64,000 nt of DNA, taken from the NCBI RefSeq assembly GCF_024223415.1, contig NZ_CP100500.1; one strand, 5' to 3'. Below the pieces are notes generated by a model, which was given only the letters and a program-made list of their open reading frames with translations, made no database searches and was not told the origin of the DNA. The position numbers and the translations under genes are program-made. Positions 14,122-29,277 of this stretch are shown here, one piece after another. Source of the stretch: Escherichia coli (GTDB lineage: Bacteria > Pseudomonadota > Gammaproteobacteria > Enterobacterales > Enterobacteriaceae). Every line of letters begins with the position of its first letter. Positions within the stretch are counted from its first letter, which is position 1.

Positions 14122-14147
14122 AATTAACTACACCATTAACTACACCG
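14122..14147. repeat. Inner 26-bp direct repeat aattaactacaccattaactacaccg, left copy (two tandem 13-mers); alternative att core
   Basis: Exact 26/26 match to 29252-29277; followed on both sides by similar phased repeat arrays. Confidence 0.8.
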
Positions 14148-14163
14148 TTCGGCGCACTGTATG

Positions 14164-14189
14164 AAACAACGTGGAACAAATAGGCACAA
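14164..14189 (+). promoter_or_regulatory. 10-bp-phased NNACAA direct repeats (AAACAA, GAACAA, GCACAA); putative recombinase/RDF or regulator binding array
   Basis: Motifs start at 14164, 14174, 14184; same family as arrays at 21838, 27909 and 29284. Confidence 0.4.
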
Positions 14190-14366
14190 GAAATATAAAG
14201 GCGGGTAATTTTAAGGGGGCGTTGCTGTCGATATGGGGATCCACATAACGGGGCTACCTGGCTTTTTTTCCGGTTAAATGTCAATCAGGCTGGTGGGCTT
14301 TACCTGTTCGGTAGGTGTTATGATTATCGTAATACCTTTCCCCCAATGGGGTAAAAGCATCAACCG

Positions 14367-14911
14367 TAACGAAAGTCGTTATGGTTGCCACCGATACTCC
14401 AAATTTGGGTATCACGAGTAAGCCCCAAAATCTGGGTGTTACTCTTACTACCCAAACTACGGGTAGTTTCCGTAGTTTCATGGTCGAGTTGCAGATCTGC
14501 AACTCCCCCATCAACCACAGGCGAATTTCCGCCTTCGGTCATTCCTTAATCATCTGCGTAATCATAATGATTATTCAGCCAGCTCAATTTTGAGCTTTGC
14601 TTTAAGTTCAGCGAGTTACCGCGCCGACTTCCTCAAATTGAGGTTTCCGAAAATATCAGTGGGTTAGCGATTAAGCAGATGGATAATTAACCTGCGAAAA
14701 TTTCGCAGGTTACATCAGCGACGTAATTCTCGCTGTTCCTGCCCGGAGGTGTCGACGAATTTCGTCGGAACCTAAGCCTGCCGGGAAGTCCGTACGTTAA
14801 ACGTACGGAGTTAATTCGACATCACACACTACGTTGTCAATTTGCAAAGGAGGGGCGGAAATCACCATACCTGCCACCCTGTCATACAGAAAGGGATTAC
14901 GATAATCGTAA
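14367..14911. repeat. Palindrome-dense noncoding block (at least eight perfect or near-perfect inverted repeats of 13-21 bp)
   Basis: Palindromes at 14367-14381, 14454-14478, 14486-14505, 14581-14596, 14631-14643, 14691-14709, 14752-14766, 14789-14809, 14897-14911; no convincing ORF. Confidence 0.6.
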
Positions 14912-14987
14912 CAGGATACAACGCCGCCTGTAATCGTAACCAATTGATTTTTATGATGACGCAAATCTGCGTTATCAGTCCTCAAAG

Positions 14988-15278
14988 TTACCGCCGCAAC
15001 CGTTCCGGCTTCTTCCACTGATAAGTGTTTTTCGCGCTCTCCTGATACATCGCCACGCGTCGACGGTATGCCAGCAACTCTAGTACTCTGATTCGTATGT
15101 CGCGCATATCCACGCCGTTAAGCTCAATACCGTCACGGCGCATCACCTCCGCCACAACACGCACATAATTTTCGGCGGTCACGCTGTCCGGCTGCGTGGC
15201 CTGTTCGTCATGCTGCTGGCTGATTCCGGTAACGCGGCGGATTAATCCCAGTAGTTCGGCTTCGCTCATTCTCGTCAT
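14988..15278 (-). CDS. Hypothetical protein (96 aa) downstream of terL
   Basis: ORF start overlaps the terL stop (translational coupling geometry); no recognisable motif. Confidence 0.4.
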   Translation of the reverse strand: MTRMSEAELLGLIRRVTGISQQHDEQATQPDSVTAENYVRVVAEVMRRDGIELNGVDMRDIRIRVLELLAYRRRVAMYQESAKNTYQWKKPERLRR

Positions 15279-16936
15279 ACCCCATCAAACGCCGCAAGCC
15301 GCTCTTTGTGGCTGTCGCTCATATCGAATGCAAATTCCTCATGCTCTGCCTGGAATGTGCCAAACGCCATCAGCGCCGCAACGCTCGGGTCTATCTTGTT
15401 GGATGATTTTTTCTTGTTCGGCTTGATATTGGCGTTCGCGTCACTCTGCATCACAACATTACTCATTGACCAGGCCAGCACCGGATCACCACGATGCACA
15501 ATCACCTTCCGGTTAACAAAAACTTCGAACGATTTCGCCGCCGGACTGAAACGAAGGTATGTTTGCGGGAACGGCTCCACCTCAAATCCTGCGCCCTGTA
15601 GCTGCGTCATCAGGTGCGTGGCGTTCCATGTATCGAAGCCCACCAGCCGGATATTAAAATTTTCCGCGTCCTTCATGATGTCATCCCTGATACGGTCGTA
15701 ATCAATACAGTCGCCTGGCGTTGTGCGTATCCAGCCCGATTTTGCCCACTGGCGATAGATGGCGCGGTTTTTATTGGCGGGATTCTGTAGCTGCTGCTCC
15801 GGCAGATAATGACGGGAAACCAGCATGATGGTTTTACCAACCGGAAAGGCATAACACACGCTTGAAATATCATTTGTTGATGATAAATCCAGCCCCGCAT
15901 AGCACTCCTGCCCGTGTAAATCTTCCTCCGTGAACGTTCCGGCACACTCAGCCCATGCACCGTTACCCATCCACGGCGTAGCCCCCTGACACCAGATATT
16001 AAAGCGCTTTGTCATCATCTCCACCCACTGCGACGGAATACCCCGCGCTTTCTGGATGGTTGAGGCAAGTTTTTCACGATCGACGGAAACATCGATATTG
16101 GGATTCGCCTTTATCCACATCGCCGGATCGTCAACCTCGCTTTCATCATCCAGCTCGTAAATCATCACGAACATGGATTCATTAACCTCTTCACCATCCA
16201 GTATCTGACAGCAATAATCATAGTGCTGCTTACAGGCAGAAATAACGTTGCTTCCCGATGTGGTAATGGCGAATAACAGCCCGTCAGGACGCGCACCCAT
16301 CCCAAGTTCAAGCGCGGAATATACGCCGTTATCGGGGTGTAAATGGTATTCATCCACAATGGCAAGACTCGGGTTTGTCCCCTCAATGGTCGCCGCCTTT
16401 GCCGCCAGTGGCTTTAACAGGCTGTTGGTTTTCGGGTGTATCACCTTGTGCGCCTGAATATTTACCCGCTTTCGTAACGGTCGGGATAAAAGGCACATCT
16501 GACGCGCATCATCAAACACGATCCGCGCCTGATCACGACTCACGGCGGCGGTGTAAATATCCTGCTGCCCGTTTTCCATAACCAGAAACCAGTTAGCCAG
16601 GATAGCGGCGACCGTGGATTTGGCATTTTTTCGCGGTACTTCAATGAATGCGCTGGTGTATTTGCGCCGTCCGGTGGACTTAACCTTAAAGCCCAGGATG
16701 CACGCAAAGGCGAACTGCTGCCACGGCTCCAGTTCAATGGGGCTACCGCGCATTGCACCTTTTACGTGCGGGCACACCCTGGAAAAGGCAATAAACCGCT
16801 CCACGACCTCCGGATCGAACGTGTAAAGGGGGTTTTCAAGGTCAGAAAAATACCGTTTAACAGCCTGTTTCAGTCGTTTACAGGCCGTAATTTTGCCGTT
16901 TTTTACGCCTTCTGCGTACTCATGCCAGGCGGTCAA
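15275..16936 (-). CDS. terL: Terminase large subunit
   Basis: 553 aa; N-terminal ATPase region with P-loop-like PRKNAKST, C-terminal nuclease-like region; follows terS. Confidence 0.85.
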   Translation of the reverse strand: MTAWHEYAEGVKNGKITACKRLKQAVKRYFSDLENPLYTFDPEVVERFIAFSRVCPHVKGAMRGSPIELEPWQQFAFACILGFKVKSTGRRKYTSAFIEVPRKNAKSTVAAILANWFLVMENGQQDIYTAAVSRDQARIVFDDARQMCLLSRPLRKRVNIQAHKVIHPKTNSLLKPLAAKAATIEGTNPSLAIVDEYHLHPDNGVYSALELGMGARPDGLLFAITTSGSNVISACKQHYDYCCQILDGEEVNESMFVMIYELDDESEVDDPAMWIKANPNIDVSVDREKLASTIQKARGIPSQWVEMMTKRFNIWCQGATPWMGNGAWAECAGTFTEEDLHGQECYAGLDLSSTNDISSVCYAFPVGKTIMLVSRHYLPEQQLQNPANKNRAIYRQWAKSGWIRTTPGDCIDYDRIRDDIMKDAENFNIRLVGFDTWNATHLMTQLQGAGFEVEPFPQTYLRFSPAAKSFEVFVNRKVIVHRGDPVLAWSMSNVVMQSDANANIKPNKKKSSNKIDPSVAALMAFGTFQAEHEEFAFDMSDSHKERLAAFDGV

Positions 16937-17276
16937 GCTCGTCCTCTTCCTCTGTTTCCGGTGGATTTCTGCGTCGGCTTACCGGGTCAAAACCCAGCAA
17001 AGAAGCCATTTTGATCATTATTCTTTCTGCGTCAGCCTTTGCGCTCAGGGCGGGGTTTCTGCTCTCGCTGCCCTGACTGTTAACAATGCTGAACCCGCGC
17101 GTCGCAAGGTCTTCGACGGCTTTGCGGTATAGGGAGTAGTTAACGCAATACAGCTCAAGATTGCTCCAGTCGGCGGGGGTAAGGTCTTCCCGCCCGGAAA
17201 GCTGGCGCGATTTTTCCTTCCATTGCCTGACGGCAATTTCATCCAGGTAAGCGGGGGCTTTTGGTGGTCTTGCCAT
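16920..17276 (-). CDS. terS: Terminase small subunit (P27-family-like)
   Basis: Starts MARPPKAPAYLDEIAVRQWKE...; short basic N-terminus typical of P27-type TerS; overlaps the terL start. Confidence 0.6.
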   Translation of the reverse strand: MARPPKAPAYLDEIAVRQWKEKSRQLSGREDLTPADWSNLELYCVNYSLYRKAVEDLATRGFSIVNSQGSESRNPALSAKADAERIMIKMASLLGFDPVSRRRNPPETEEEDELDRLA

Positions 17277-17321
17277 GTTCTTTTTTCGCCCAATTATTTT
17301 CAAAAAAATTCCCGTGCACAA

Positions 17322-17565
17322 AAATTTGAGCAGGCGGTCGGTTCTGGGCAGGGTCGGGTTCGTCCTGAAAACTCCCCCCCACCCCGTCCGGCTGCCTCAT
17401 CAGCGATTGCGAAAACATTCCATGACCTCGCGGTCACGGTCGGTTAATCGCTTCGCTGTGGTGCGTTTTGTGCGCCCTGTCCTGTTGGCTTTGTGCTCTG
17501 TCTCCTGTGTCTTCCATGTGTCACGCTGCCTTATCAGTCCACGTATCAGCCTGGTTTGCTCCTGT
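17322..17565. other. Candidate cos/packaging site in the HNH-terS intergenic gap
   Basis: 244-bp noncoding gap with G-rich and C-rich tracts (ggcggtcggttctgggcagggtcggg, actcccccccacccc) at the position where HK97-like cos sites lie. Confidence 0.3.
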
Positions 17566-18006
17566 TCAGTCATCATCGCCATACATCCAGTCGTTACGGT
17601 GTGCCGCCCGTTCTTCCTGCTCGCGATACATGCCCGCTTTACGGTTTGCTTTCGTGGCTGGATCTTCCCGTGTGGTCTTACGGTTGTGGCACGTCTGGCA
17701 CAATGCCTGGTGATTCCACTCAGGCCAGAAGAGAACATCATTACCGCCATCGATGGGGATAATGTGATCCACCACCACGGCGGGCGTGTATATTCCTTTT
17801 TCCAGGCAATGCGCACATAACGGGTTTTTACTCAGGTACATAGCGCGGTATTTCTCCCACTGCCTCGTATACCCTCGCTCCCTGCTGCTGCCTCTCCGGC
17901 TGTCCTGCTGCTGGCGTGCGCTGCGTCTGTGCTCCTCACACTTCCCGGACTTCACGCGCCTGTTGCAGCCTGGTTGTGTGCATCGTCTCAATGGTTGCCA
18001 CGGCAT
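17566..18006 (-). CDS. HNH endonuclease (packaging-associated)
   Basis: 146 aa with Cys-His motif (CAHCLEKG...DHIIPIDGGND...ALCQTCHNRKT); sits next to terS as in HK97-like cos phages. Confidence 0.75.
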   Translation of the reverse strand: MPWQPLRRCTQPGCNRRVKSGKCEEHRRSARQQQDSRRGSSRERGYTRQWEKYRAMYLSKNPLCAHCLEKGIYTPAVVVDHIIPIDGGNDVLFWPEWNHQALCQTCHNRKTTREDPATKANRKAGMYREQEERAAHRNDWMYGDDD

Positions 18007-18302
18007 CAGTACACCCCCACATCACGATAAACCGACCAGAGCGCGGAAATCGTCAGGGGAATTTCTTTTGTATCGGTATCGCCAAGCGTTGTCCGGTACT
18101 CGTACAGTTGCGAGATGTACATCAGGCAACCAATTTTTATTGCAGGGGTAAATTCCAGGCCGTCATCAAAACGCCTGCCAATATGCTTCTGGCATACCTC
18201 CAGCGCCGCGCTTATGTATGCCTGAATCAGTGTGTCTTCTGTGTTACCATCTATGCGGCAGTGAAGTTTGGCCTCTTCCAGGGTTATTTTTTCTGCTGTC
18301 AT
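18006..18302 (-). CDS. Head-tail connector protein (gp6-like)
   Basis: 98 aa, MTAEKITLEEAKLHCRIDGNTEDTLIQAYISAALE... typical of phage gp6-like connectors. Confidence 0.55.
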   Translation of the reverse strand: MTAEKITLEEAKLHCRIDGNTEDTLIQAYISAALEVCQKHIGRRFDDGLEFTPAIKIGCLMYISQLYEYRTTLGDTDTKEIPLTISALWSVYRDVGVY

Positions 18303-18637
18303 TTTTCTGTACCCACCTTTGCCAGAATTTCCAGCCGGGTTCTTTTCGCATCAGGTAAGGGGATCCCGATGATATTAAGCGTGCTCCCGGCAAAAGCGCC
18401 GGTAAGCACTTTCAGGCGACTGGCGGCGGATATGTCGCCACGATAGCGAACCCATACCCGAATCGTTGCAGGTGCGGTTTCTGCGCCTGCGGTCAGTAAT
18501 TCCCGTCCGCTGATCCCCTTGACCTCTGCCCAGATGGTTTCCCCTTCCGTCCATATCTGCTGGATCGCACCTGACGGCAGGCGCTGTGTGGTAAATGTCA
18601 TAATCGTCACCCGGTCCCGCATCTTTCCGGCTATCAT
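18299..18637 (-). CDS. Head closure / head-tail adaptor protein
   Basis: 112 aa; size and position (after portal, before HNH) fit the head-tail joining family. Confidence 0.5.
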   Translation of the reverse strand: MIAGKMRDRVTIMTFTTQRLPSGAIQQIWTEGETIWAEVKGISGRELLTAGAETAPATIRVWVRYRGDISAASRLKVLTGAFAGSTLNIIGIPLPDAKRTRLEILAKVGTEK

Positions 18638-19851
18638 TCGTCACCGCCCTTACTGTTCTTGCTGATTGTCACTTCCTGCTTCCATGCCTGGCTGAACTCG
18701 TCGCCACCTTCACGCGGCGGCATTCCCTCACGCTCACGGGCTTCGTTCGGATTGATGATCCCGTTCTTAATCCCTTTCTCATACGTGGCGTAACGTTCGG
18801 TAGGGGTGGCGCGTAATAAATCGGCTGAATCAAACTCAACCAGATAACGGGTACCAGGTACGGGAGAAGCCACCAGCAAAGCAGCCTTGATTTGCTGTTC
18901 GAAGTTCGCCAGCCACGGGCGCATTGTCATGGTCAGAAACGCGCGGCTTGCCTCACTGAAATTGCTGTAGGTGCTGTTGCTGTATTCCTGCAAAAAAATC
19001 GGCGAGACGTTGAACATTCGGGCGATGTCTTCAATGGTAAAGCGACGGGAGGCCAGCCATTCAGCATCCTGATTACTCATGCCCAGCTGCTGATAGCTCA
19101 TACCCCCTTCAAGGATGGGCGTTTTTCCGGCGTTTCTGGCCCCTTTGTAGCGTTCCAGTGCGGCTAATGCCTGTTTGCCCTTCACGCCGTCCAGCCATTC
19201 GCCTGACGTGATAACCCCTGCCGCCATCATGCCATCACGCATCACGCTCGCGCCGTGGCGTTGTTGGGCCAGCCCAAGCCCCAGCGATTCGCGGCAGATG
19301 GTTACAGGTGAGCGCCCCATAAAGCCGTCATCCGTGGAGTAACGAAGGTGGAGAACCTCCCACGGTAAATAGTTGCGGGTGTTTCCGGTGTAGGCGTCAG
19401 TGATGCAGTAGCGCCAGTTATGCTCACCTGTCTGCTCCACGTTCACCGACTGCGGCGGGTAAGGATGTAAAGCCACCGGAAAACCATCACGCCCCCACTG
19501 AATAACCGCATAAGCATTACCGTTTAACAGGCAGTGGCGGATCATCATTCGCTTAAACTGGTAGGGGGTTTGCCATGCGTTCGGGCGCTCGTTGAGGATG
19601 TGATCGACCGGATGAGAATCAAGCCACTCGCGGGCCTCCTTCCCCTTCTCATTGCGTACCAGGTACAGGTAACACGGCATGGTAGCCACCGCCTCAGAGA
19701 TGACCGTCACGGCGTTCATGACGGCGGGCAGTGATTCCGCTGTCCCCGATGATACGTACTCACCCGCCCCCGTGTTCGATGTGCCCGCCAGCGCCATAAA
19801 TTCATCAAGCGTCATGCTGCGCTGCTCTTTTTTTCTTCTGAAAAGCCACAT
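18634..19851 (-). CDS. Portal protein (HK97 family-like)
   Basis: 405 aa; position between protease and connectors; composition typical of HK97-type portal. Confidence 0.8.
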   Translation of the reverse strand: MWLFRRKKEQRSMTLDEFMALAGTSNTGAGEYVSSGTAESLPAVMNAVTVISEAVATMPCYLYLVRNEKGKEAREWLDSHPVDHILNERPNAWQTPYQFKRMMIRHCLLNGNAYAVIQWGRDGFPVALHPYPPQSVNVEQTGEHNWRYCITDAYTGNTRNYLPWEVLHLRYSTDDGFMGRSPVTICRESLGLGLAQQRHGASVMRDGMMAAGVITSGEWLDGVKGKQALAALERYKGARNAGKTPILEGGMSYQQLGMSNQDAEWLASRRFTIEDIARMFNVSPIFLQEYSNSTYSNFSEASRAFLTMTMRPWLANFEQQIKAALLVASPVPGTRYLVEFDSADLLRATPTERYATYEKGIKNGIINPNEAREREGMPPREGGDEFSQAWKQEVTISKNSKGGDE

Positions 19852-19852
19852 A

Positions 19853-20425
19853 TCACACCCCCGCTAAATCCACCCACCAGCGGCGATTATCCGCACGCGG
19901 CATTTTTTCGGGGTGCTGCTCATACAGGGAACGGCGGGCCAGCTCCACGCCGGAATCGGGGTAAGCCGGTACCGATGTAACGGTAATTTCGTACAGTTCC
20001 GCCACCAGCACGGTACGAACGCATGGATCTGTTGTGGTATCCCATACATCCTTACGGGAGCGAAAGCCAAAGCTCATGCCGGATATATCACCGCGTTTAA
20101 CCAGTTCGATAACGTCGCGCCCTGTACTGGTATCCGGTGGGGTCAGTTCAAAGCGTAACCCTGTTTCGTCCTCTTCCAGTTTCAGCGTGCCGGAACGGGT
20201 GCGCCCCAGTAACATGCTGTGGTCATGCTCATACAGGCCGCGAACGTCATTACCCGCCGCAAGCCATTCAGTAAACGCCCCCCGCTGGAATTTTTCGTAA
20301 AACTCACCCCATAACAGTTCTGAAAGCTTATCCCAGCGAACAACGTAGCCCGTCAGCGTACCGGCTCCGCTCGTGGTGATTTCCGATGACCGGATTTCCA
20401 TACTCTTCATAATTTTTTCACCCAT
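19853..20425 (-). CDS. Prohead maturation protease (HK97 gp4-like)
   Basis: 190 aa immediately downstream of the capsid gene. Confidence 0.75.
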   Translation of the reverse strand: MGEKIMKSMEIRSSEITTSGAGTLTGYVVRWDKLSELLWGEFYEKFQRGAFTEWLAAGNDVRGLYEHDHSMLLGRTRSGTLKLEEDETGLRFELTPPDTSTGRDVIELVKRGDISGMSFGFRSRKDVWDTTTDPCVRTVLVAELYEITVTSVPAYPDSGVELARRSLYEQHPEKMPRADNRRWWVDLAGV

Positions 20426-20464
20426 AAAACACTAAAGGGGCTTTTAAGCCCCTTCTGTATGCTG

Positions 20465-21622
20465 TTAATCGTCGTCCTGTGGCAGTTCCAGAATCTTGAT
20501 CGCGTTCGAATCCACCACGCCACCGCCTAAATATTTCTGCGTGAAAATTTTGATGAAGCCCGGCTCTGTGATGTTGTCCGGTCTGGTGCGAACACCTGTT
20601 TCGTGATCAACAATGTAGTAACCGCGTTTGAAGTCACCCAGGGCAATAACGTTATCAGGCATAAACTCCAGATATTCGACCGGAAGGCCCAGCAACGTAT
20701 CAGGATCACCCGCCTGTAAACGGTCGCGCCAGATGTAATCACCGTTCGCGTTCTTCACCTTCTGAAGTTTTGCCGCCGTTGTGGAGTTAACCACCCATAC
20801 CGCGTTCTTGCGGTATTTTTTACGCAATGCAAATTTCAGGTCGATCAGCGGGTCCGCAGATGTCCACGCCAGACCGTGAGCGGGCTTGATAACCTGCAAC
20901 GTTCCGAAGTCGCGTTCTTTGTCGCTCTTCTCTGCACGGGGGACGGATAAAAAGCCTTTTGCTTTTTTGTCACCGTCGCCCACAACCAGATCGCTTTCTT
21001 CGGTTTCCGTGAAGGTGTCGCCAATCTCGGCCGTCAGCCATGAAAGGATGTCCACATCGGAAAAATCCACGATTTCCTGTGTGGTGCGCGGGTACGCATA
21101 GACCGGATACAGCTTAATGCTCACCTCGTTAATCTGCGGGGTGCTGGTCTGTTCGCGTGCCTTACCCTCTTCACCGTGGTTAACGGTCGCACCGCCAGCG
21201 GAAACAAGCTGCTTAAACTCGTTGCTGCTGATTTTCTTCACGGTACAGATGCGGCGCATGGTGGATTCATCCGCCAGCATTCGCATGATTTCGGTGTTCA
21301 GTTCGGGGATAACGGTATAACCACCATCAGCGGGAACGCCTGTACTTAATGCGCGGGTTTCACCTGTCAGAATGTAGTTGCGTAGTTCTGCGGGGTCAGT
21401 GGTCTGACTGCTTTTACCTGGCTTGCTGCGCTCTTCGTCTGCAATGGCTTCAAGGCGGGAAATGTCTTTATCGAGGGATTCAGCTTTAGCGCGTAATTCA
21501 TCAAATTTTGCGCCCTCAGCATCGTTAAGACTGCGGTTTTCTTTTTCCGCGTTCTCCAGCATGTCGCGCATCTGATTTTTAATGGCGGTTTTCTGCTGGC
21601 GTAATTCGATTATTCTCGGCAT
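20465..21622 (-). CDS. Major capsid protein, HK97 fold, with N-terminal coiled-coil scaffold (delta) domain
   Basis: ATG at 21622 gives MPRIIELRQQKTAIKNQMRDMLENAE... (delta domain) then capsid body; the longer ORF to 21667 would read through a terminator hairpin. Confidence 0.85.
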   Translation of the reverse strand: MPRIIELRQQKTAIKNQMRDMLENAEKENRSLNDAEGAKFDELRAKAESLDKDISRLEAIADEERSKPGKSSQTTDPAELRNYILTGETRALSTGVPADGGYTVIPELNTEIMRMLADESTMRRICTVKKISSNEFKQLVSAGGATVNHGEEGKAREQTSTPQINEVSIKLYPVYAYPRTTQEIVDFSDVDILSWLTAEIGDTFTETEESDLVVGDGDKKAKGFLSVPRAEKSDKERDFGTLQVIKPAHGLAWTSADPLIDLKFALRKKYRKNAVWVVNSTTAAKLQKVKNANGDYIWRDRLQAGDPDTLLGLPVEYLEFMPDNVIALGDFKRGYYIVDHETGVRTRPDNITEPGFIKIFTQKYLGGGVVDSNAIKILELPQDDD

Positions 21623-21660
21623 AAAAAAAAGTCCTGGGGTTAAGTAAGGAACTCCAGGAC
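21623..21660 (-). terminator. Intrinsic terminator on the minus strand directly abutting the capsid start codon
   Basis: Minus strand reads gtcctgg-(16 nt)-ccaggac followed by TTTTTTTT, then ATG of the capsid gene. Confidence 0.45.
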
Positions 21661-21837
21661 GCGGCAAAAACTCAACCGTTTTTCATAAGGAAATCAGCAA
21701 TCGCACCGATCGTTTTCCCGCCTGGTAATGAATATTGGCGAGCACATTAACAGGCGGGAAAGTGGCCCCAGCGTCCTGGCACCACGGGCGAGAATAATCA
21801 TGATTCAGTTCGAGTAAAATATGCCGATCCGCTCAGT

Positions 21838-21896
21838 GAACAACCTGGAACAACCACGAACAAATAATTTACAAAACCTGAAAAAATAAATAAACT
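21838..21896 (+). promoter_or_regulatory. Promoter of the 157-aa gene with phased upstream repeats: GAACAA x3 at 10-bp spacing, then -35 TTTACA, 17-bp spacer, -10 TAAACT
   Basis: GAACAA at 21838, 21848, 21858; TTTACA 21868-21873; TAAACT 21891-21896; AGGAGG SD at 21924 and ATG at 21938. Confidence 0.45.
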
Positions 21897-21937
21897 GTTC
21901 CGTACATTTTCTGCTCGTTAATCAGGAGGAACGAACT

Positions 21938-22411
21938 ATGTCAGAAAATGAACTGAAAAAAGCAATGTTCATTCAGCAACGATTGCAGATTCTCCACCTT
22001 GGTAAACACTATGATGAGTTCAGTGATTCTTACGTGTATGCCTGGGAGGCAGATGTTTATCCTTTCTTGCAGGATGGCGACGGAAGTATTCCTGCTCGCC
22101 CACATGAAATTTACGAAGAGTTTTTCGGCACATCTAAAAACAAAGCCAAAAAGATATACGATCGTCTGTGCAAAGCCTGGCACGACCAGGAGGCACTCAC
22201 ATTCTATAAACTAGAAAGTGAATATGGTGTAACAAGTAGCAGCATGCACAGATGGACACGAAGTGATTTACTTCACATCTGCCGCTATCTGTATCTTGAG
22301 GGGTGTTTCGATAAAGATTTCTGGGAAACATTACTGGAAAACGGAAAATGCCCAAGCGAAGCACTTTACCTTAGCGATGAATTTAATCGCGATACAGAGA
22401 TCGACTTCTAA
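21938..22411 (+). CDS. Hypothetical protein (157 aa), stand-alone opposite-strand cargo gene
   Basis: Strong SD and promoter, own bidirectional terminator; only plus-strand gene inside the structural/regulatory part of the island; no recognisable domain. Confidence 0.65.
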   Translation: MSENELKKAMFIQQRLQILHLGKHYDEFSDSYVYAWEADVYPFLQDGDGSIPARPHEIYEEFFGTSKNKAKKIYDRLCKAWHDQEALTFYKLESEYGVTSSSMHRWTRSDLLHICRYLYLEGCFDKDFWETLLENGKCPSEALYLSDEFNRDTEIDF

Positions 22412-22448
22412 AAAAATGGCCTGGAAAATACCAGGCCATTATTATTCT
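22411..22448. terminator. Bidirectional intrinsic terminator between convergent genes
   Basis: atggcctgg-aaaata-ccaggccat flanked by an A-run on one side and T-rich sequence on the other. Confidence 0.55.
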
Positions 22449-22695
22449 ACCGTTTCACGGGATCACGCATTCTGCGCCTTATTTTCCACAGATATTCGAT
22501 CATCGCTTCCACCTGCTCACGGTTGGTTGCGAAAATTTCCCCGGTCAGTGAGCTACGCAGAAAATCATGATGATCCACAAAAAATAACGCATCGGAAGAA
22601 AGCAGCCGGAGATATTTTTTTGCTGTCGTGCTTTCCAGATCATCAAAATCATGAAGCTTTTTATGTTGCTGGACTTCTTCAAATGTCACTGGCAT
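22447..22695 (-). CDS. Hypothetical protein (about 82 aa)
   Basis: Internal ATG (MPVTFEEVQQHKKLHDF...) downstream of the PerC-like gene. Confidence 0.45.
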   Translation of the reverse strand: MPVTFEEVQQHKKLHDFDDLESTTAKKYLRLLSSDALFFVDHHDFLRSSLTGEIFATNREQVEAMIEYLWKIRRRMRDPVKR

Positions 22696-22740
22696 GTTTC
22701 CTCCTGCTACCACGATACCAGAAACAGTTAACAACCGTTA

Positions 22741-23022
22741 TCAATTATCCCCTTTTTTAGGGTAGTTCCTGAACATCTCACCGCCAGGCTTCTGTAAGCC
22801 CATCCCGGTATGTGTGCGGTTTATGGCCTCTTTCAGTATTCCGAAATTATCCGGTATGACTGGTGGGCGTGCTGCCTTACGGATACATTCCGCGCGACGC
22901 TTTGCCACTTGTTCGCGCTCCTTGTCAGTGCTCACCAGCCACATAACATCAGCCCATCGCGCGGCCGCCCTCCGGTAAAATCCTTTCGCCTCCAGTTCCT
23001 CCGCTATCCGGTCATGTACCAT
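22741..23022 (-). CDS. PerC-family-like transcriptional regulator (tentative)
   Basis: About 93 aa from internal ATG: MVHDRIAEELEAKGFYRRAAARWADVMW...; the EAxGxxRRAAxxW motif resembles PerC-type activators. Confidence 0.4.
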   Translation of the reverse strand: MVHDRIAEELEAKGFYRRAAARWADVMWLVSTDKEREQVAKRRAECIRKAARPPVIPDNFGILKEAINRTHTGMGLQKPGGEMFRNYPKKGDN

Positions 23023-23032
23023 CGTCACCCCC

Positions 23033-23443
23033 TCAGAACGGAATATCATCACCGTAAGGGTCATCGCCTCCCGCTGGTGGCTGATTACCCTGTGTGCCTG
23101 TGGTTTTGCGTCTGTTCCCACCAGGACGTGCCGCACGCGCACTGATTACGCTGTCTGCGATAACCTGCCAGCCCTGCCGCGTTTCCCCGTTCTGTCCGGT
23201 CCACTGGCTGACCTGCATCGTGCCGGATACGCTGGCAACGTCGCCTTTTTGATGTTTAGCCAGAAAGTCGGCCTGTTTGCCAAATGCGATGACCGATAAC
23301 CATAACGTCGCCTGTCCGTCCTGTGCCTGGCCGCATGGTAAAGATACCGCCATACGCGCCAGCGTCATCGGTGTACCCTTACTGGTCTGTTTTACCTGCG
23401 GGTCGTCCACCAGCCGCCCGTAAGCTGCAATTTGTGCTGTCAT
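23033..23443 (-). CDS. ssb: Single-stranded DNA-binding protein
   Basis: 136 aa with OB-fold-like core and acidic C-terminal tail ending DDIPF. Confidence 0.85.
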   Translation of the reverse strand: MTAQIAAYGRLVDDPQVKQTSKGTPMTLARMAVSLPCGQAQDGQATLWLSVIAFGKQADFLAKHQKGDVASVSGTMQVSQWTGQNGETRQGWQVIADSVISARAARPGGNRRKTTGTQGNQPPAGGDDPYGDDIPF

Positions 23444-23452
23444 ATTGCCACC

Positions 23453-23758
23453 TCAGTGAAGCGATCCGGCGTTGTTCTTTTTCATCTCTTCCATCATTTT
23501 TTCAGTGAGCATTACGCACTGAAAACCCATGTTTTTGATGTCTACGGGTTTCATGCCTTTGTCAGTGGATATCACAGGCAGAATATCCTGATACACATCG
23601 CCGCCAGGGTAACTAAGCACACAAAGCGCCCATGATGCCACGGGTGAGGATCCTTGGTCTGTTTCAACCCACCAGCCTGGTGTAGCTGCGCTTATTTGCA
23701 GAATCGTGATCCGTCCGTTGTGCTTGTAAAATTTTTCACCACATTTTGGTTCGCTCAT
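23453..23758 (-). CDS. Hypothetical protein (101 aa)
   Basis: ORF in operon context between ssb and the ori region. Confidence 0.4.
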   Translation of the reverse strand: MSEPKCGEKFYKHNGRITILQISAATPGWWVETDQGSSPVASWALCVLSYPGGDVYQDILPVISTDKGMKPVDIKNMGFQCVMLTEKMMEEMKKNNAGSLH

Positions 23759-24006
23759 GCTTCCACCTCTCCGGTTTTAACGTTGATGGTTGTCACCTGT
23801 TCCGCTCCGGCAATCTCCCGTTCTGTCAGCGTGGCAAAATTTGCCGCTACCGTTGTCATGAATGCGCTTATCAGTTCGGGATGTGCTTTCGCGTATCCTT
23901 CTCCCGCGTGGCGGTCTATCGTTCTGATTGCCACCTTTAAGGCGTGCTCTGTCATGTCTAACGCTTTATATTTTGGCGCTGTCTTATCTCTGGTTTTTCT
24001 GTTCAT
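23755..24006 (-). CDS. Hypothetical protein (start uncertain)
   Basis: ORF 23755-24036 trimmed to an internal ATG because its 5' end runs into the iteron array. Confidence 0.3.
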   Translation of the reverse strand: MNRKTRDKTAPKYKALDMTEHALKVAIRTIDRHAGEGYAKAHPELISAFMTTVAANFATLTEREIAGAEQVTTINVKTGEVEA

Positions 24007-24225
24007 TCCCCACCACTCCCCACTTTTGCTCCCCACTTTTTAAATTCCCCACTTGCTCCCCACCTCGTTTTTTGAGTGAATCTAATGCTTTGTTTTTCAT
24101 TGCGTTTTTTGCTCCCCACTTTTTTGGATGTATACAGGTGGGAAAGTGGGGAATTATGTTTCAATTTTGTTAAATTCCCCACTCTCCCCACTTTTACTAC
24201 CCACTTTTTACAGTGGGTAAACATC
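24005..24225. repeat. Iteron array (at least 8 copies of tccccactttt-like units in both orientations around an AT-rich core); putative replication origin
   Basis: Repeats ctccccactttt, gctccccacttttt, attccccact and inverted gtgggaaagtgggg, immediately 3' of the primase/helicase gene. Confidence 0.6.
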
Positions 24226-25614
24226 ATCCCCATCGACACAAATCACGCCGTCTTTTTCCAGCTTGTACAGCCAGCGCCGGAAGTGCTTCATCTCATACCC
24301 CAGCTTTTTCATATCGTCGCGGAGAAGGGCGATAGTGCATGGCTCTTTGTGTGCCGTCCGCGTTCTGATGCACTGCCATAGCGCGGCGTGATTCTCCGAT
24401 TTGTTGCCTGCTTCCTCGATGCGCTCCAGTTCAGCAGGGGCGCGGGGAACGTCAATCACCACCATAGACACAATCTCTTCGCCATCTGTATCGGTGAACA
24501 CCTCCACGCTTTTAAGGTCGTATGCACTCTCTTTTGGCTCCTCTGCGTCCTTCATCTTCGTACACGCCGCCACCAGTGCTGTAACGTCTGAATTTTCCCG
24601 GCTGATTCGGTACTCTGCATCAAGCGCGGCACGGAATGCGCTGGAACCACGCGCCCCCTTTGTTTCATCCTTGCCGGAATGGTGAACCACCAGCACCGTG
24701 GCCCCTGTGGCCTGCTTTATCGCGTCACACCCCTGGATAAATGCGCCCATATCACGGGAATCATTTTCATCATTCCCACCAAAGCAACGGGCCAGTGTGT
24801 CGATCACAATCAGCCGCACATTTTCGCCCGTTCTGCTCTTAACAAGTCCGGCAGTCCTGATAACCTGCTCCACATAGTCAGGCGATGCAGGGAAAACAGG
24901 CGCGTTAATGATGCACAAATCTGTAACCACCTTGTCGTGGGTTATCTCCCACGCCTTAACGCGGCGTTTTACGCCCATGCTGCCTTCACCAGCGATATAG
25001 ATAACCGCCCCCTTACTTACCCTGCGGCCTCCCCATGCCATACCTGTGGCAACATGGCACGACCAGGAAATGGCGAGGAACGATTTATAAGAACCGCTGG
25101 CCCCGTAGGTGCTGCATAATGACTCAGCCGGAATAAGCCCCTTAATTACGTAGCTTTGCTGCGCGTCGAATCCCTCAGAACCCCATGAGATGGGAAGCGT
25201 GATTTTTCGCTTTCCGCCATTCATGACCAGGCTTTCCCCTCTCTCCCATGTTTCCCGTAGTCGTGGTAGCTGGTCGCTCCAGTCCTCCAGCAGTTCGAAA
25301 TTTTCAGAAAGTAGCCGCGCCTCCTGGACTCCGGCGATCGCCAGTTTTGTGGCAATGGTCAGCATCTGCATATCGTCCAGGTTTCCGGCGCGTATGACCT
25401 TTGCCCTGTATCGTCCTTCATCAACAATCTGTAAGTTGTCCAGTTCGCTTAACTGATAACGGCCCAGGTAAACCGGAGGGATGGGATCGCCTGCTTTTTT
25501 GGCCTGTGCAATCATGTAATGTTCTGCAAAGGAGTGAGCATTATCACCCGCAAAAATAACCGCCTCAGTGTGTTTATCTTTCGGTAACAGTTTTACGTTC
25601 GGTGCAAGTTTCAT
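24208..25614 (-). CDS. Replication protein: primase-like N-terminus plus RecA/DnaB-like AAA ATPase (pri-rep)
   Basis: 468 aa; Walker A-like IYIAGEGSMGVKRR and Walker B-like LIVIDTLARCFG, C-terminal winged-helix-like tail. Confidence 0.75.
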   Translation of the reverse strand: MKLAPNVKLLPKDKHTEAVIFAGDNAHSFAEHYMIAQAKKAGDPIPPVYLGRYQLSELDNLQIVDEGRYRAKVIRAGNLDDMQMLTIATKLAIAGVQEARLLSENFELLEDWSDQLPRLRETWERGESLVMNGGKRKITLPISWGSEGFDAQQSYVIKGLIPAESLCSTYGASGSYKSFLAISWSCHVATGMAWGGRRVSKGAVIYIAGEGSMGVKRRVKAWEITHDKVVTDLCIINAPVFPASPDYVEQVIRTAGLVKSRTGENVRLIVIDTLARCFGGNDENDSRDMGAFIQGCDAIKQATGATVLVVHHSGKDETKGARGSSAFRAALDAEYRISRENSDVTALVAACTKMKDAEEPKESAYDLKSVEVFTDTDGEEIVSMVVIDVPRAPAELERIEEAGNKSENHAALWQCIRTRTAHKEPCTIALLRDDMKKLGYEMKHFRRWLYKLEKDGVICVDGDDVYPL

Positions 25615-25898
25615 TTCTTACCCCCTGCGACCAGCATTTCACGGATTTTGCGGATATAACTTGCAGCACGTTTCTGATTAACGGCTTTACGATGGCCCAC
25701 CAGCGTGAAATCACGCCGGAACTGATAAACAGGCATAACGCAGTCATATTCGTAGCCTTCACGGCGGTAAGTTACGCGACGTTCCTCCACGCTTTTAATT
25801 GTTACCGTGCCGCCGTAGTTATCTTTGAAAATATCGCCGGGGCGGATTTCAGGCCGAGCGGGGCCGCTGGCAGTAAAGCCAGAATATTTAAGTTTCAT
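25611..25898 (-). CDS. Hypothetical protein (95 aa)
   Basis: Stop overlaps the pri-rep start; basic protein. Confidence 0.4.
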   Translation of the reverse strand: MKLKYSGFTASGPARPEIRPGDIFKDNYGGTVTIKSVEERRVTYRREGYEYDCVMPVYQFRRDFTLVGHRKAVNQKRAASYIRKIREMLVAGGKK

Positions 25899-25903
25899 TA
25901 TTT

Positions 25904-26137
25904 TTATTCTCCGGTGTGCTGTTCTTTATATCTGTCGTGCAATAGGTCTATTTCCTGCAACTCTGTTATTACAGGTTCAAGGAGAGTTATCAGAGATTTA
26001 ATAATCCGCGCATTCTTTACATCACGCTCATTATCGCCAAATGTATCTGGATACATTTGCAATATTTCGTACATACCTTCAGCGTAAGCAATGGCACTAA
26101 ATGCGCGGTCTATTGTTTCGAGGTAAATATCACGCAT
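25904..26137 (-). CDS. Hypothetical protein (77 aa)
   Basis: Compactly spaced ORF in the same operon. Confidence 0.4.
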   Translation of the reverse strand: MRDIYLETIDRAFSAIAYAEGMYEILQMYPDTFGDNERDVKNARIIKSLITLLEPVITELQEIDLLHDRYKEQHTGE

Positions 26138-26138
26138 A

Positions 26139-26387
26139 TTAATCCCCGTCCGTCGTTTTTCTTAAAATAACCTCTGTCACGAAATCAGCATAATCGGCGG
26201 CGATATTCAGTACATCAAGCCCCGTTGATTTATATTCTCTCGTGGAAAGTAAGAAAAAAGCCGCTCTAATAAGCTCTGGCATTGACGAAAGCGCATCAGC
26301 CGCATCATCAGGAACGCCGGAAAATTCCTGTTTCAGGGAATTAAAACGATCATCACGCATAACCCCCCCCATTTTCACAATCAGCAA
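26139..26387 (-). CDS. Hypothetical protein (82 aa)
   Basis: Compactly spaced ORF in the same operon. Confidence 0.35.
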   Translation of the reverse strand: MLIVKMGGVMRDDRFNSLKQEFSGVPDDAADALSSMPELIRAAFFLLSTREYKSTGLDVLNIAADYADFVTEVILRKTTDGD

Positions 26388-26634
26388 TCAGGATGGCTTT
26401 GGCCTCATTCAGTGCCATATCAGCGGTAAGCTGTGCGTAGGCCAGCAAATGCGGGATTATTGCCCCTGTATATTCCGTCTCTCTGGTAATGTGTTTTTCT
26501 GCGGTTGCTGCCGTGCATGAAATATCAATCAGCGCGTGCATCAGCGTTTTGATGGCTTCGGCGGCTGCGTCCGGACGGGTGTTATTGCACATGGCACACC
26601 TCCTGACGGATACGGGCGGCGAATACAGCGACAC
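26353..26634 (-). CDS. Hypothetical protein (start uncertain)
   Basis: ORF overlapping its neighbours; probable start at an internal ATG. Confidence 0.3.
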   Translation of the reverse strand: MSLYSPPVSVRRCAMCNNTRPDAAAEAIKTLMHALIDISCTAATAEKHITRETEYTGAIIPHLLAYAQLTADMALNEAKAILIADCENGGGYA

Positions 26635-26780
26635 AACCGGACGGGCAACGGTTACGCGCTTCGCGTTCCGTCCAGGCGGTCACGTGGATAATTTGAGATT
26701 CTCCGGCACTCAGTGCCAGAAAACGCCACACAAAGGCGGTTTGTGTGTGCGCTAGTCGTGGGGTATGCTGTGTTCCAGCC
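26582..26780 (-). CDS. Hypothetical small protein (about 66 aa), first gene of the leftward early operon
   Basis: C-terminal part of spurious 267-aa ORF, from ATG near 26780: MAGTQHTPRLAHTQTAFVWRF...; divergent from the RHH gene. Confidence 0.35.
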
Positions 26781-26867
26781 ATAATCGTTACTCCTGTTAA
26801 CGGTTTGGTTAGACGCCCTGCATGTGTTACAGCACTGCGGGGCGTTGTCTTTTTAACGGCTTTCGTG

Positions 26868-26917
26868 ATAGGGTGTACACCTATCAAGCAAAAAAATAAC
26901 GCTATAGGTGTACACAT
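26868..26917. promoter_or_regulatory. Two operator-like palindromes centred on GTGTACAC in the divergent regulatory region
   Basis: atagggtgtacacctat (26868-26884) and tataggtgtacacat (26903-26917); the second overlaps the RHH start codon. Confidence 0.45.
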
Positions 26918-27110
26918 GTCAACAGTTATTAAGCGAGATAAAAAACCAAAGGGAACAGGAAAAGCCCCCCCATTCCATATGCGAATAGCTCCAGAACTGA
27001 AAGAGCAGTTTGATAATGAGGCCAGCAATGATGGGGTAAGCCTAGCCAACTGGCTTAAAGAGTTGGGACGCAGTGAACTGAAGCGGCGCGGTATAGAACC
27101 CAAAGGTTGA
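26916..27110 (+). CDS. Ribbon-helix-helix (Arc/MetJ-like) DNA-binding protein; candidate island repressor
   Basis: About 64 aa from internal ATG: MSTVIKRDKKPKGTGKAPPFHMRIAPELKEQFDNEASNDGVSLANWLKELG; only regulator on the plus strand, divergent from the early operon. Confidence 0.5.
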   Translation: MSTVIKRDKKPKGTGKAPPFHMRIAPELKEQFDNEASNDGVSLANWLKELGRSELKRRGIEPKG

Positions 27111-27143
27111 TAGCCCACCAGCAAGCCAGGACACTGATCACAT

Positions 27144-27171
27144 TGGCCACCGTGACAGGTGGCCTTTTCTT
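27144..27171 (+). terminator. Intrinsic terminator after the RHH gene
   Basis: ggccacc-gtgaca-ggtggcc followed by ttttcttt. Confidence 0.5.
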
Positions 27172-27437
27172 TGCCCGTTATCCGGCAATTGTGGCGCTTC
27201 GCCACACGGTTGATATAATCCCACTGCTCATATTCATTTTTTGCGCAGCAGGTAAATTGTTCAGAAAGGCGGCTCCTTATCGGGGCCGCTTTTTTTATGC
27301 CTGAAAAACCGCGATTTTGTTGTTTTTCAGTTTCACAAGGCCGAACGAAGCCCCGCCCCTGTTCCGGCGTATATCCAGTCTTCATGGTTAAATCTCTGTA
27401 TTAGTGGATGGGTGGCGGCTGTGTGCCGCCAGTCTTT

Positions 27438-27626
27438 TTAGTGAACTGCCTCGCAGCTTTCCTTCCATGCCAGAACTTCGGATAAAGACCAGCCAACGGA
27501 ACGACCGCCCAGCTTACGCCGTGATGGGAATTGTCCGGCCTTTTCCAGGCGGTAGCGGCATGAGCGGCTAAGCCCTGTTAGCTTTTCGCATTCTTTTTCA
27601 CGTATAAAACGATCAGTGCTTAACAC
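27438..27626 (-). CDS. alpA: AlpA-family phage transcriptional regulator / excisionase-like
   Basis: 62 aa, LTGLSRSCRYRLEKAGQFPSRRKLGGRSVGWSLSEVLAW matches the AlpA/Xis HTH pattern; adjacent to int. Confidence 0.75.
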   Translation of the reverse strand: MLSTDRFIREKECEKLTGLSRSCRYRLEKAGQFPSRRKLGGRSVGWSLSEVLAWKESCEAVH

Positions 27627-27908
27627 TATTGCCCCCTTTCGTTTCTTAAAGAGTTATTTCGTGTTCTATTGCGTTGGTATGTGTCTGATTGTGTCAGGGT
27701 GATTCAGAGTTGGCAAATGTTGATGGCGGGTATTTTACAGAAACGGGGTGATTTTAATAAAAAACATTTTAATTCAGTATTATGCAAAGGCATAAAATCT
27801 CGTTTCATGCCTTTTTTCTCACTATTTAAAGCGTTATTCGCTAATGTATAAAAAACCAGTTGAGCATTAAAAATCAGCAACTTATAAATCTGTATATTTT
27901 TTGGCCTC

Positions 27909-27954
27909 TTGTTCGTGGTTGTTTCACGTTGTTGCGTATTGTTGCACGTTGTAT
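27909..27954 (-). promoter_or_regulatory. Five 10-bp-phased direct repeats (TTGTT on plus strand = AACAA on minus) between int and alpA
   Basis: TTGT motifs start at 27909, 27919, 27929, 27939, 27949. Confidence 0.5.
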
Positions 27955-28000
27955 CTGTGCACTTATCCAGTATGCGCATACTGAAAAAACACGAAAAAAA

Positions 28001-29248
28001 TTATTTTCTTCTGGCTACTGGTAGCGTGGTTACGTTTTCATGTGCTCCCGCCAGTATCTCCAACCGCTCCACCCACATATCCAGCGCATTGCGTTTCGCA
28101 TCCAGATAACGGGAATGATTATAAACTCGCTGCATTCCTGGCATCTGGTGGCCTGTAAGCTGCTCCACGACATGCGGATCAACGCCTAAATCGTTCAGCA
28201 TGGTTGTAAAGGTGCGCCGGATGTCATGCAGTGACCAGTGAGGGTGTTTAAGCCTCCTGTGCACTAATCTGCCGTACTGCGACACGCTGGTTTCCTGTTT
28301 CACTTCCCCCAGCAATAAGTCCGTGTGCCTGTTCTGCTCCACCAGCTGCGTGACGAACGGCAGTATCGCTTCCGGTATGGGCCGGAATATGGCTACCTTC
28401 GTTTTGCTGTGCTCCTTCGGAACGGTCCAGAGCATTTCGGTAAAATCCCACTCGCCGATCTCCGATAACCTCAGTTCTACTGTCCTGCATCCGAAGACAA
28501 TCAGGAGGCGGATTAGTGCGACGTAGTAAGGGGAAAATATTTTTTTGTCCAGTGCCTGCAATAATTCGCCAAGTTCTTTGTTACTTAAGACACGCTGACT
28601 TATATCCGGTTTTTTCCCAACGTCAGCCACACTCATATCATCAAGAACGTTGCTGATTGCATAGCGCCGCTTCCGGCAGAACTTAAGCGCCTGTTTGCAT
28701 GTCTGTAGCAGGAACCCGGCGGAAACAGGGGCTTGCTTTGCCACCCGATCAAAACAGGCCAGCCAGTGCCGTAGCTCGCATTTATCCAGCGGCATAGGGC
28801 CAATGTGCTGTATTACGTGATTATTTAGCCGCTTTTTCAGTGGGTCATAATCCACACGGTTTTCCTTTGCGTACGACTCAAGCCAGTAGGTGAGCGCATC
28901 GCCAACCGTTACAGGCTTTAACGCTTCCTGTACGGTGTAATTCATCTCATGACGTGGATTTTTCCCCTCAGCCAGCCATGCGCGACACTGGGCGGCTTTT
29001 TCCCTGGCTGATTTCAGGCTCAGATCAGGATAATTTCCCAGCTTAATGCGTTCCGGTGGTGCGCCCCTTCCCGTTCCGGCCCTGTAAGTGAAATACCAGG
29101 TTAAAAGGCCGCTGGTTGAATGCCTGACGGTCAGGTTTCCACCGTCATTAAGAAAGGCTGTTTTTTGGGCGGGTGTGCCGTTGATTTTCCTTAGCTGTGT
29201 ATCACTCAGTTTGTTAAGTGCTCTGCGCATAATTTTGATTCCGGTCAT
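28001..29248 (-). CDS. int: Tyrosine-type site-specific integrase (P4-like)
   Basis: About 415 aa; N-terminal arm-binding-like region, catalytic HDIRRTF...HQMPGMQRVYNHSRY; start codon (GTG 29251 or ATG 29248/29230) abuts the 26-bp repeat. Confidence 0.9.
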   Translation of the reverse strand: MTGIKIMRRALNKLSDTQLRKINGTPAQKTAFLNDGGNLTVRHSTSGLLTWYFTYRAGTGRGAPPERIKLGNYPDLSLKSAREKAAQCRAWLAEGKNPRHEMNYTVQEALKPVTVGDALTYWLESYAKENRVDYDPLKKRLNNHVIQHIGPMPLDKCELRHWLACFDRVAKQAPVSAGFLLQTCKQALKFCRKRRYAISNVLDDMSVADVGKKPDISQRVLSNKELGELLQALDKKIFSPYYVALIRLLIVFGCRTVELRLSEIGEWDFTEMLWTVPKEHSKTKVAIFRPIPEAILPFVTQLVEQNRHTDLLLGEVKQETSVSQYGRLVHRRLKHPHWSLHDIRRTFTTMLNDLGVDPHVVEQLTGHQMPGMQRVYNHSRYLDAKRNALDMWVERLEILAGAHENVTTLPVARRK

Positions 29249-29251
29249 CAC

Positions 29252-29277
29252 AATTAACTACACCATTAACTACACCG
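29252..29277. repeat. Inner 26-bp direct repeat, right copy
   Basis: Exact match to 14122-14147. Confidence 0.8.

Follow-up and report, generated by a model that had tools for sequence, protein, structure and literature searches.

An integrated element occupies positions 14122-29277 of the window (the whole 64-kb stretch of DNA that we analysed), bounded by a 26-bp direct repeat, AATTAACTACACCATTAACTACACCG, whose copies at 14122-14147 and 29252-29277 are the probable attL and attR and give an excised size of 15,130 bp. It sits between phoQ and roxA, the same site as the island of Escherichia coli O157:H7, and the phoPQ genes beside it are ~99% identical to those of E. coli. Size, integration and att repeats all fit a capsid-forming PICI (cf-PICI; ~10-18 kb), as do the modules that it carries, namely a tyrosine integrase, an AAA_25 (RepA-like) helicase, a DUF4222 protein, an SSB and a PerC protein; the integrase, replication and regulation annotation is equivalent in two relatives (L001 and L002). 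No tail or lysis family was matched among the island ORFs scanned, several small ORFs being left unassigned. The element, of 15.1 kb and devoid of tail and lysis genes, is a cf-PICI of the EcCIEDL933 type, a satellite and not a phage.

On the minus strand, Pfam assigns in order capsid, prohead protease, portal, head-completion protein, gp6-like connector, HNH, terS and terL (Table 1), in agreement with the order published for Proteobacterial cf-PICIs, capsid-protease-portal-connectors-hnh-terS-terL (10.1101/2022.09.08.507074). The best-known members, EcCIEDL933 of E. coli O157:H7 and KpCIDSM30104 of K. pneumoniae, share with the island the type of element and the gene order int...rep...capsid-protease-portal-connectors-hnh-terS-terL; their induction depends on a helper, and they make small capsids and use helper tails for transfer (10.1101/2022.09.08.507074; 10.1101/2025.02.11.637232). 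For EcCIEDL933, an HK97-like phage such as HK106 has served as the helper. Cf-PICI hnh, terS and terL are each needed for transfer, and mutations in the packaging module of EcCIEDL933 abolished it in all cases except that of the hypothetical gene 1792, whose loss reduced it severely (Alqurainy et al., 10.1101/2022.09.08.507074). A cos site just upstream of terS is an ordinary and expected feature of an HNH-terS-terL module in this known system. Elsewhere in the island, the last gene before att, a 96-aa ORF (14988-15278, minus strand; phrog_1561, of unknown function), overlaps the end of terL and has conserved counterparts in relatives. A PerC-family transcriptional activator is encoded at 22741-23142 (minus strand), and between capsid and perC, on the opposite strand, lies a 157-aa ORF (21938-22411, plus strand) that has no Pfam match and may be either an accessory gene or spurious.

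Table 1. Features of the island and of its packaging region in window coordinates. Identities are mean pairwise values over 17 representatives; signed positions count from the predicted cut.
Feature	Coordinates	Strand	Basis or conservation
Whole cf-PICI island	14122-29277		26-bp direct repeat AATTAACTACACCATTAACTACACCG; repeat search
terL, large terminase, ATPase and nuclease domains	15275-16936	-	PF03354, PF20441
terS, P27-family small terminase	16920-17276	-	Terminase_4 PF05119, E 3e-23; phrog_83
Leader with SD segment	17277-17293	-	identity 0.61
T-tract/GAAAATAA	17294-17308	-	identity 0.98; 13 of 15 columns invariant
Candidate TerS-binding element, +12 to +37 (GTGCACGGGAA then TTTTTTTGAAAATAA; T-tract from +23)	17294-17319	-	
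GTGCACGGGAA	17309-17319	-	identity 0.71
CTCAAATTTTT, +1 to +11, most conserved block	17320-17330	-	identity 0.99; 10 of 11 columns invariant
CGACCGCCTG, predicted cohesive end, -10 to -1	17331-17340	-	identity 0.76
Hypervariable 18-nt patch of constant length	17344-17361	-	identity 0.62; 2 of 18 columns invariant; no indels
Block A, GGGGTGGGGGGGAG-TTTTCAGGAC, -55 to -32	17362-17385	-	identity 0.92-0.93
Linker	17386-17402	-	identity 0.51
57-aa ORF	17400-17573	-	translation; phrog_3173; annotated CDS in RefSeq relatives
Small-ORF codons compared	17403-17441	-	identity 0.76
HNH endonuclease, gp74-like packaging accessory	17566-18006	-	PF01844, E 2.8e-8; phrog_144, E 6e-43
gp6-like connector	18006-18302	-	Pfam
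Head block upstream of HNH	18006-21667	-	PF05065, PF04586, PF04860, PF05521, PF05135
Head-completion protein	18299-18637	-	Pfam
Portal	18634-19851	-	Pfam
Prohead protease	19853-20425	-	Pfam
Capsid	20465-21667	-	Pfam

The first-pass annotation had described a noncoding gap of 244 bp at 17322-17565, the only sizeable one in the packaging operon, as the place of a cos site. About 70% of that interval is coding, however, as it is largely filled by a 57-aa ORF with a full-length match to phrog_3173 (E 4.9e-27), which opens with an ATG at 17573, 8 nt inside the end of HNH. In addition, the start codon of terS is the ATG at 17276 and not a TTG upstream (17321). The ORF boundaries leave a true spacer of 123 bp, 17277-17399 on the minus strand. 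No other gap in the operon comes near this size: the second largest measures 39 bp and the other genes overlap or abut. The claim of a single sizeable gap thus holds for the 123-bp spacer, but not with the bounds 17322-17565. With a small gene in the supposed gap, another start for terS, and a satellite instead of a phage, the annotation of the locus is corrected on three points.

The small protein is conserved as a protein across lineages, with a C-terminus of the form ..RDRE(V/L)xECFRNR kept across 89 distinct variants; the ECFRNR-like terminal motif is invariant, and the 8-nt overlap couples translation of the ORF to that of HNH. Its family, phrog_3173, is of unknown function. A packaging accessory role might be imagined for this protein, which lies between HNH and the putative cos, but is speculative, as is any correspondence with gene 1792 of EcCIEDL933.

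The G-rich and C-rich tracts quoted previously are both found on the plus strand, at 17333 (GGCGGTCGGTTCTGGGCAGGGTCGGGTTCG) and 17371 (ACTCCCCCCCACCCCGTCCGGC), and the whole window has just four G/C homopolymer runs of at least seven, among them the C7 run at 17374. The strongest sign that these tracts are more than chance comes from their conservation across relatives. We gathered the homologous spacer from ~300 loci in E. coli and Klebsiella genomes and IMG/VR contigs, and aligned 17 representatives that were pairwise less than 96% identical, scoring each segment by mean pairwise identity. Read in the direction of the genes, the window has the succession TGA-linker-GGGGTGGGGGGGAGTTTTCAGGAC-GAACCCGACCCTGCCCAG-AAC-CGACCGCCTG-CTCAAATTTTT-GTGCACGGGAA-TTTTTTTGAAAATAA-leader-ATG. 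The conserved blocks of this noncoding DNA reach identities of 0.92-0.99, as against 0.76 for the codons of the small ORF and 0.51-0.62 for the linker, patch and leader (Table 1). Moreover, the distances between blocks are fixed: block A ends exactly 34 nt before AAATTTTT in 98 of the 99 distinct intact spacers. Noncoding blocks better conserved than the adjacent genes, and held at fixed distances, indicate that the spacer is a DNA site recognised by proteins. Between the nearly invariant flanking blocks, the segment made of the predicted cohesive end and the 18-nt patch (17331-17361, minus strand) varies in sequence at constant length, and does so even between elements that are ~95% identical overall.

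Conserved blocks directly upstream of terS could also be signals that control transcription or translation of terS-terL (a promoter, a terminator, an antiterminator or a leader), with cos lying elsewhere in the island. One could take the T-rich stretch and GAAAATAA for promoter-like or UP-like DNA, and a terminator-like hairpin was called nearby, at 17420-17439, although inside the 57-aa ORF. No sigma-70-like promoter or terminator was predicted in gene orientation within 17277-17399, a search of the spacer against Rfam gave no match, and its predicted RNA fold is not unusual (z = -1.1); a promoter, a terminator or a structured RNA was accordingly discarded as the cause of the conservation. 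The segment that holds the leader and the Shine-Dalgarno sequence is, on the contrary, among the least conserved parts of the spacer, and the ends of linear relatives described below map to the spacer and nowhere else. We consider control signals very improbable as an explanation of the blocks, which are better read as a protein-binding site. Pairing of the G-run with the C-rich block, as a hairpin or dyad, was also dismissed on direct reading, their complementarity being parallel and not antiparallel; nor does the spacer show any symmetric dyad of the cosN kind.

The position of the packaged ends can be approached through relatives whose records are linear, and three independent ones break within the homologous spacer, weaker cases included. 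The first, vB_KppS-Ant (LR881103), derives from particle DNA of a K. pneumoniae DSM 30104 lysate sequenced from a Nextera XT library (PMC8006926). This linear record of 16,548 bp has the order terS-terL-...-int-...-capsid...HNH-small ORF; it begins 22 nt before terS and finishes 37 nt past the small ORF, so that 69 bp of spacer are absent. It halts right after block A and picks up just past GAAAATAAA, and it is otherwise 100% identical to the integrated K. pneumoniae copy (GCA_000742135.1) over the ~1.9 kb compared on either side of the spacer. Tagmentation libraries under-sample the ends of molecules, and a hole centred on one point in a linear record is what fixed physical ends would be expected to leave. 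The record, deposited as 'Escherichia phage vB_KppS-Ant' (LR881103.1), is a cf-PICI by gene content; its source paper calls it a filamentous ssDNA prophage (PMC8006926). A further record, MF417951, has been cited as 90% similar to it.

The second is a metagenomic contig, IMGVR_UViG_3300022664_000095, a complete and collinear relative of 15,518 bp in which terS starts at 61 and the small ORF ends at 15,457. Its first bases are CTCAAATTTTT and its last base lies 21 nt past block A, so that the two ends together hold 21 + 3 = 24 nt of a stretch that counts 34 nt in intact spacers: exactly 10 nt are absent. Each of the 124 distinct intact spacers examined at the junction has these 10 nt, including that of the closest intact relative of the contig (L114), which differs from it by 2 mismatches over 120 flanking nt and reads CACCCGCCCC at the join. 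Two weaker cases lend further support. One contig (L201) ends a single nucleotide from the same position, and in the record PQ569648 the cf-PICI part breaks on both sides of the spacer, running from the start of terS to 5 nt before the stop of the small ORF. The latter entry (PQ569648.1, Klebsiella phage P12620-1; 106,503 bp) contains a linear cf-PICI of 15.9 kb at ~90,645-106,503, and looks like a chimeric assembly in which a cf-PICI was appended to ~90 kb of unrelated phage sequence.

The same permutation in vB_KppS-Ant and in the metagenomic contig, both of which end inside the homologous spacer, bears out the earlier proposals that cos lies between HNH and terS and that the packaged DNA starts with terS-terL and ends with capsid...HNH. 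The linear order terS-terL-hypothetical gene-att junction-int-replication-capsid...HNH-small ORF is thereby supported. Headful packaging, with a pac site and not a cos in the spacer, would be compatible with a recognition site next to terS, as such TerS-proximal sites also occur in pac systems. It is hard to reconcile with linear relatives of unit length (15,518 and 16,548 bp) whose ends are fixed at this site and not permuted. In addition, packaged cf-PICI DNA has been reported to carry cohesive cos ends and to form concatemers through them (He et al., 10.1101/2025.02.11.637232), and a gp74-like HNH protein beside the terminase is the hallmark of HNH-dependent cos packaging (PMC3592412; 10.1101/2022.05.10.491410). 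Headful packaging consequently appears extremely improbable. We infer instead, with good support, that the spacer is a cos and that the packaged genome runs from terS-terL to HNH and the small ORF. More specifically, 17277-17399 is very likely the cos of the 15.1-kb cf-PICI, which would be cut with the assistance of HNH to leave 10-nt 3' cohesive ends.

Transferred by alignment to the window, the ends of the metagenomic contig predict a left end (+1) at 17330, with CTCAAATTTTT running toward terS, and a last duplex base of the right end at 17341. The cohesive end would be 17331-17340, 5'-CGACCGCCTG-3' on the minus strand and CAGGCGGTCG on the plus strand. We infer with moderate support that the nicks fall at 17330|17331 and 17340|17341, for a 10-nt 3' overhang. 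Arbitrary linearisation of a circular or integrated template loses no bases, and the loss of 10 nt is therefore read as a single-stranded 3' end; the deficit would, depending on the library type of the contig, correspond to 3' extensions removed during end repair. The 3' polarity would follow from this loss, as opposed to a duplication, of bases in one assembly and from the analogy with HK97. With the left end so placed, the ATG of terS lies at +55, and it is exactly at +1 that the most conserved block of the spacer begins.

Even with cos in the spacer, artefacts of assembly could account for where the cut is placed and for the 10-nt 3' overhang, the true nicks lying elsewhere in 17277-17399, for instance in the patch, or having another length or polarity. 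Both ends at single-base resolution come from one contig only, and the other ends are scattered: one contig stops 1 nt from the same position (L201), another at about +10 (L174), and vB_KppS-Ant falls short by 21 and 38 nt. Assemblies could, moreover, be interrupted at the G-run and at the variable patch. A further contig (L073) starts at the stop of the small ORF, and we treated its end and that of L174 as unrelated assembly ends. The relatives that provide end evidence are ~70-85% identical to the window in the spacer region; none of the copies from the lineage of the window itself (33 IMG/VR contigs), the O157 type (36) or the L080 type (6) ends at the site, which is internal in all of them. 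Nevertheless, repeats or strain variation fail to explain a complete, permuted contig with a clean deficit of 10 nt, the predicted +1 falls at the edge of the most conserved block, and the overhang has the length known from HK97. We therefore regard an artefactual cut as unlikely.

Among the phages with mapped ends, HK97 offers a close comparison of layout. Its DNA is cleaved between -1 and +1 to leave a 10-nt 3' overhang, with the gp74 HNH protein stimulating cutting (PMC11331095; 10.1101/2022.05.10.491410), and its sequence was deposited from its cos ends. The arrangement HNH-cos-terS-terL of HK97 is mirrored in the window by HNH-spacer-terS-terL, and the proteins are homologous for two of the partners: the island TerL is 27% identical to HK97 gp2 (E 1e-49) and the island HNH 36% identical to gp74 (E 1e-16). 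HK97 TerS binds +15 to +29 (CTAACCCGATTTTTT) through one specific G:C pair and an essential A-tract that starts at +24 (PMC11331095). With the cut as predicted, the cf-PICI spacer has GCACGG at +14 to +19 and an invariant T-tract at +23 to +29, facing a TerS of another family; the T-tract would start at +23 as compared with +24, and terS at +55 as compared with ~+50. In both systems a G-run also lies ~30-55 nt before the cut, and the overhang lengths agree if the prediction for the cf-PICI is right. As the cut was placed without recourse to these similarities, they provide an independent check of consistency.

The resemblance does not extend to the DNA itself. By eye, an alignment of the two sites is striking (G-run, GACCGCC, T7 tract, spacing), but an nhmmer profile of the spacer run against the circularised HK97 genome missed the cos junction, its best matches lying elsewhere with E >3, and homology to HK97 cos was rejected. 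Likewise, BLASTP detected no similarity between the island TerS and HK97 gp1, and homology between them was set aside; the island protein belongs to the P27 family (PF05119). As the cos sequences are dissimilar and the small terminases are of different families, the comparison is one of layout only, and the spacer is best described as a distinct cos that would work like that of HK97 without being a copy of it. The kinship with HK97-like cos phages proposed in the first-pass annotation is correct for the arrangement and for the homology of HNH and TerL, but not for the nature of the element, a satellite, nor for the cos DNA. Of the two tracts quoted there, the G-rich one holds the predicted overhang together with a hypervariable patch, whereas the C-rich one belongs to a flanking block ~32-55 nt away from the cut. 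Three further differences set the island apart from HK97: the 57-aa gene between HNH and cos, packaging genes located after the capsid genes and not before them, and a tail-less satellite lifestyle. Among phages with mapped ends, no close relative was found, the nearest true phages sharing only ~36% identity in TerL, and megablast and blastn searches of phage records matched only cf-PICI-like records.

Lambda provides a more distant parallel. Its cos consists of cosQ, cosN and cosB, in this order, upstream of Nu1, and is cut to 12-nt 5' overhangs by a terminase that is unrelated in sequence and needs no HNH protein. The spacer has a similar tripartite layout before the gene for the small terminase, with a conserved block, a predicted nicking region and a putative A/T-rich protein-binding region, but the lambda site differs by its 5' 12-nt overhangs and HNH-free cleavage, and to regard block A as cosQ-like is speculation. 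Satellites packaged from a cos are also known in the cos-type SaPIs (such as SaPIbov5) and in phage P4. These carry the cos of their helper and use its terminase and capsid proteins (10.1101/2022.09.08.507074), in contrast to the island, which brings a cos, a terminase, an HNH protein and capsid genes of its own.

Taken together, these elements suggest the following mechanism. Upon induction by a helper phage, the island would excise at the 26-bp att repeats and replicate into concatemers. The P27-family TerS would probably recognise the invariant DNA in front of its own gene, CTCAAATTTTT at +1 to +11 and the T-tract/GAAAATAA at +23 to +37; a cosB-like candidate for TerS binding, of speculative status, is the whole of +12 to +37. 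TerL, with the gp74-like HNH nuclease, would make two nicks 10 nt apart, leaving 10-nt 3' ends (CGACCGCCTG). The DNA would be packaged from its terS end (17330), terL being followed by the att junction, int and the genes for replication and capsid, until the next cos is reached; the right end would finish with HNH, the small ORF and block A (17341). The direction of packaging and the pairing of proteins with blocks are likewise predictions. Block A could serve in termination, as a cosQ-like element, or be contacted by HNH or TerL, both being speculative.

The predicted cohesive end itself is hypervariable, with 17 different 10-mers at this position among 124 distinct spacers. The cohesive end and the 18-nt patch vary while the spacing is fixed to the base, from which it might be proposed that the nuclease cuts at a measured distance from the invariant flanking blocks and not at a given sequence, although we hold this idea to be rather doubtful. 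If it were true, the variable cohesive end could act as a lineage barcode that limits annealing between the ends of different cf-PICIs, or with those of helper DNA, co-packaged in one cell. Packaging of a cf-PICI and of its helper is mutually exclusive (10.1101/2022.09.08.507074), with which a distinct cos sequence is consistent and which a defined cos would help to explain.

The analysis locates the predicted start and end of the packaged genome of the satellite. We found no published coordinates of a cf-PICI cos cut in the searchable literature, and what is added here for the Enterobacterial cf-PICI family is a prediction of the cut at the level of the base, together with the pattern of a variable cohesive end and patch between flanks and spacing that are fixed. 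A defined minimal cos would also be useful for DNA delivery vectors based on cf-PICIs.

The HNH-terS region is present in 533 of 5,426 complete E. coli genomes, nearly all of them 80-96% identical to the window. The blocks of the spacer are conserved in EcCIEDL933 and KpCIDSM30104, but in this region the window carries a different allele, with ~80-84% identity to the O157 copy and ~70% to that of Klebsiella; its predicted overhang 10-mer, CGACCGCCTG, is unique among the cf-PICIs compared. The closest E. coli match to the packaging region is found in strain TUM1886 (L001, NZ_CP128970.1), with 96% identity over 1.15 kb and 99% over the central 525 bp. The island of that strain lies at another chromosomal site, between allC and allE, which suggests that packaging modules are exchanged between cf-PICIs with different integration modules.
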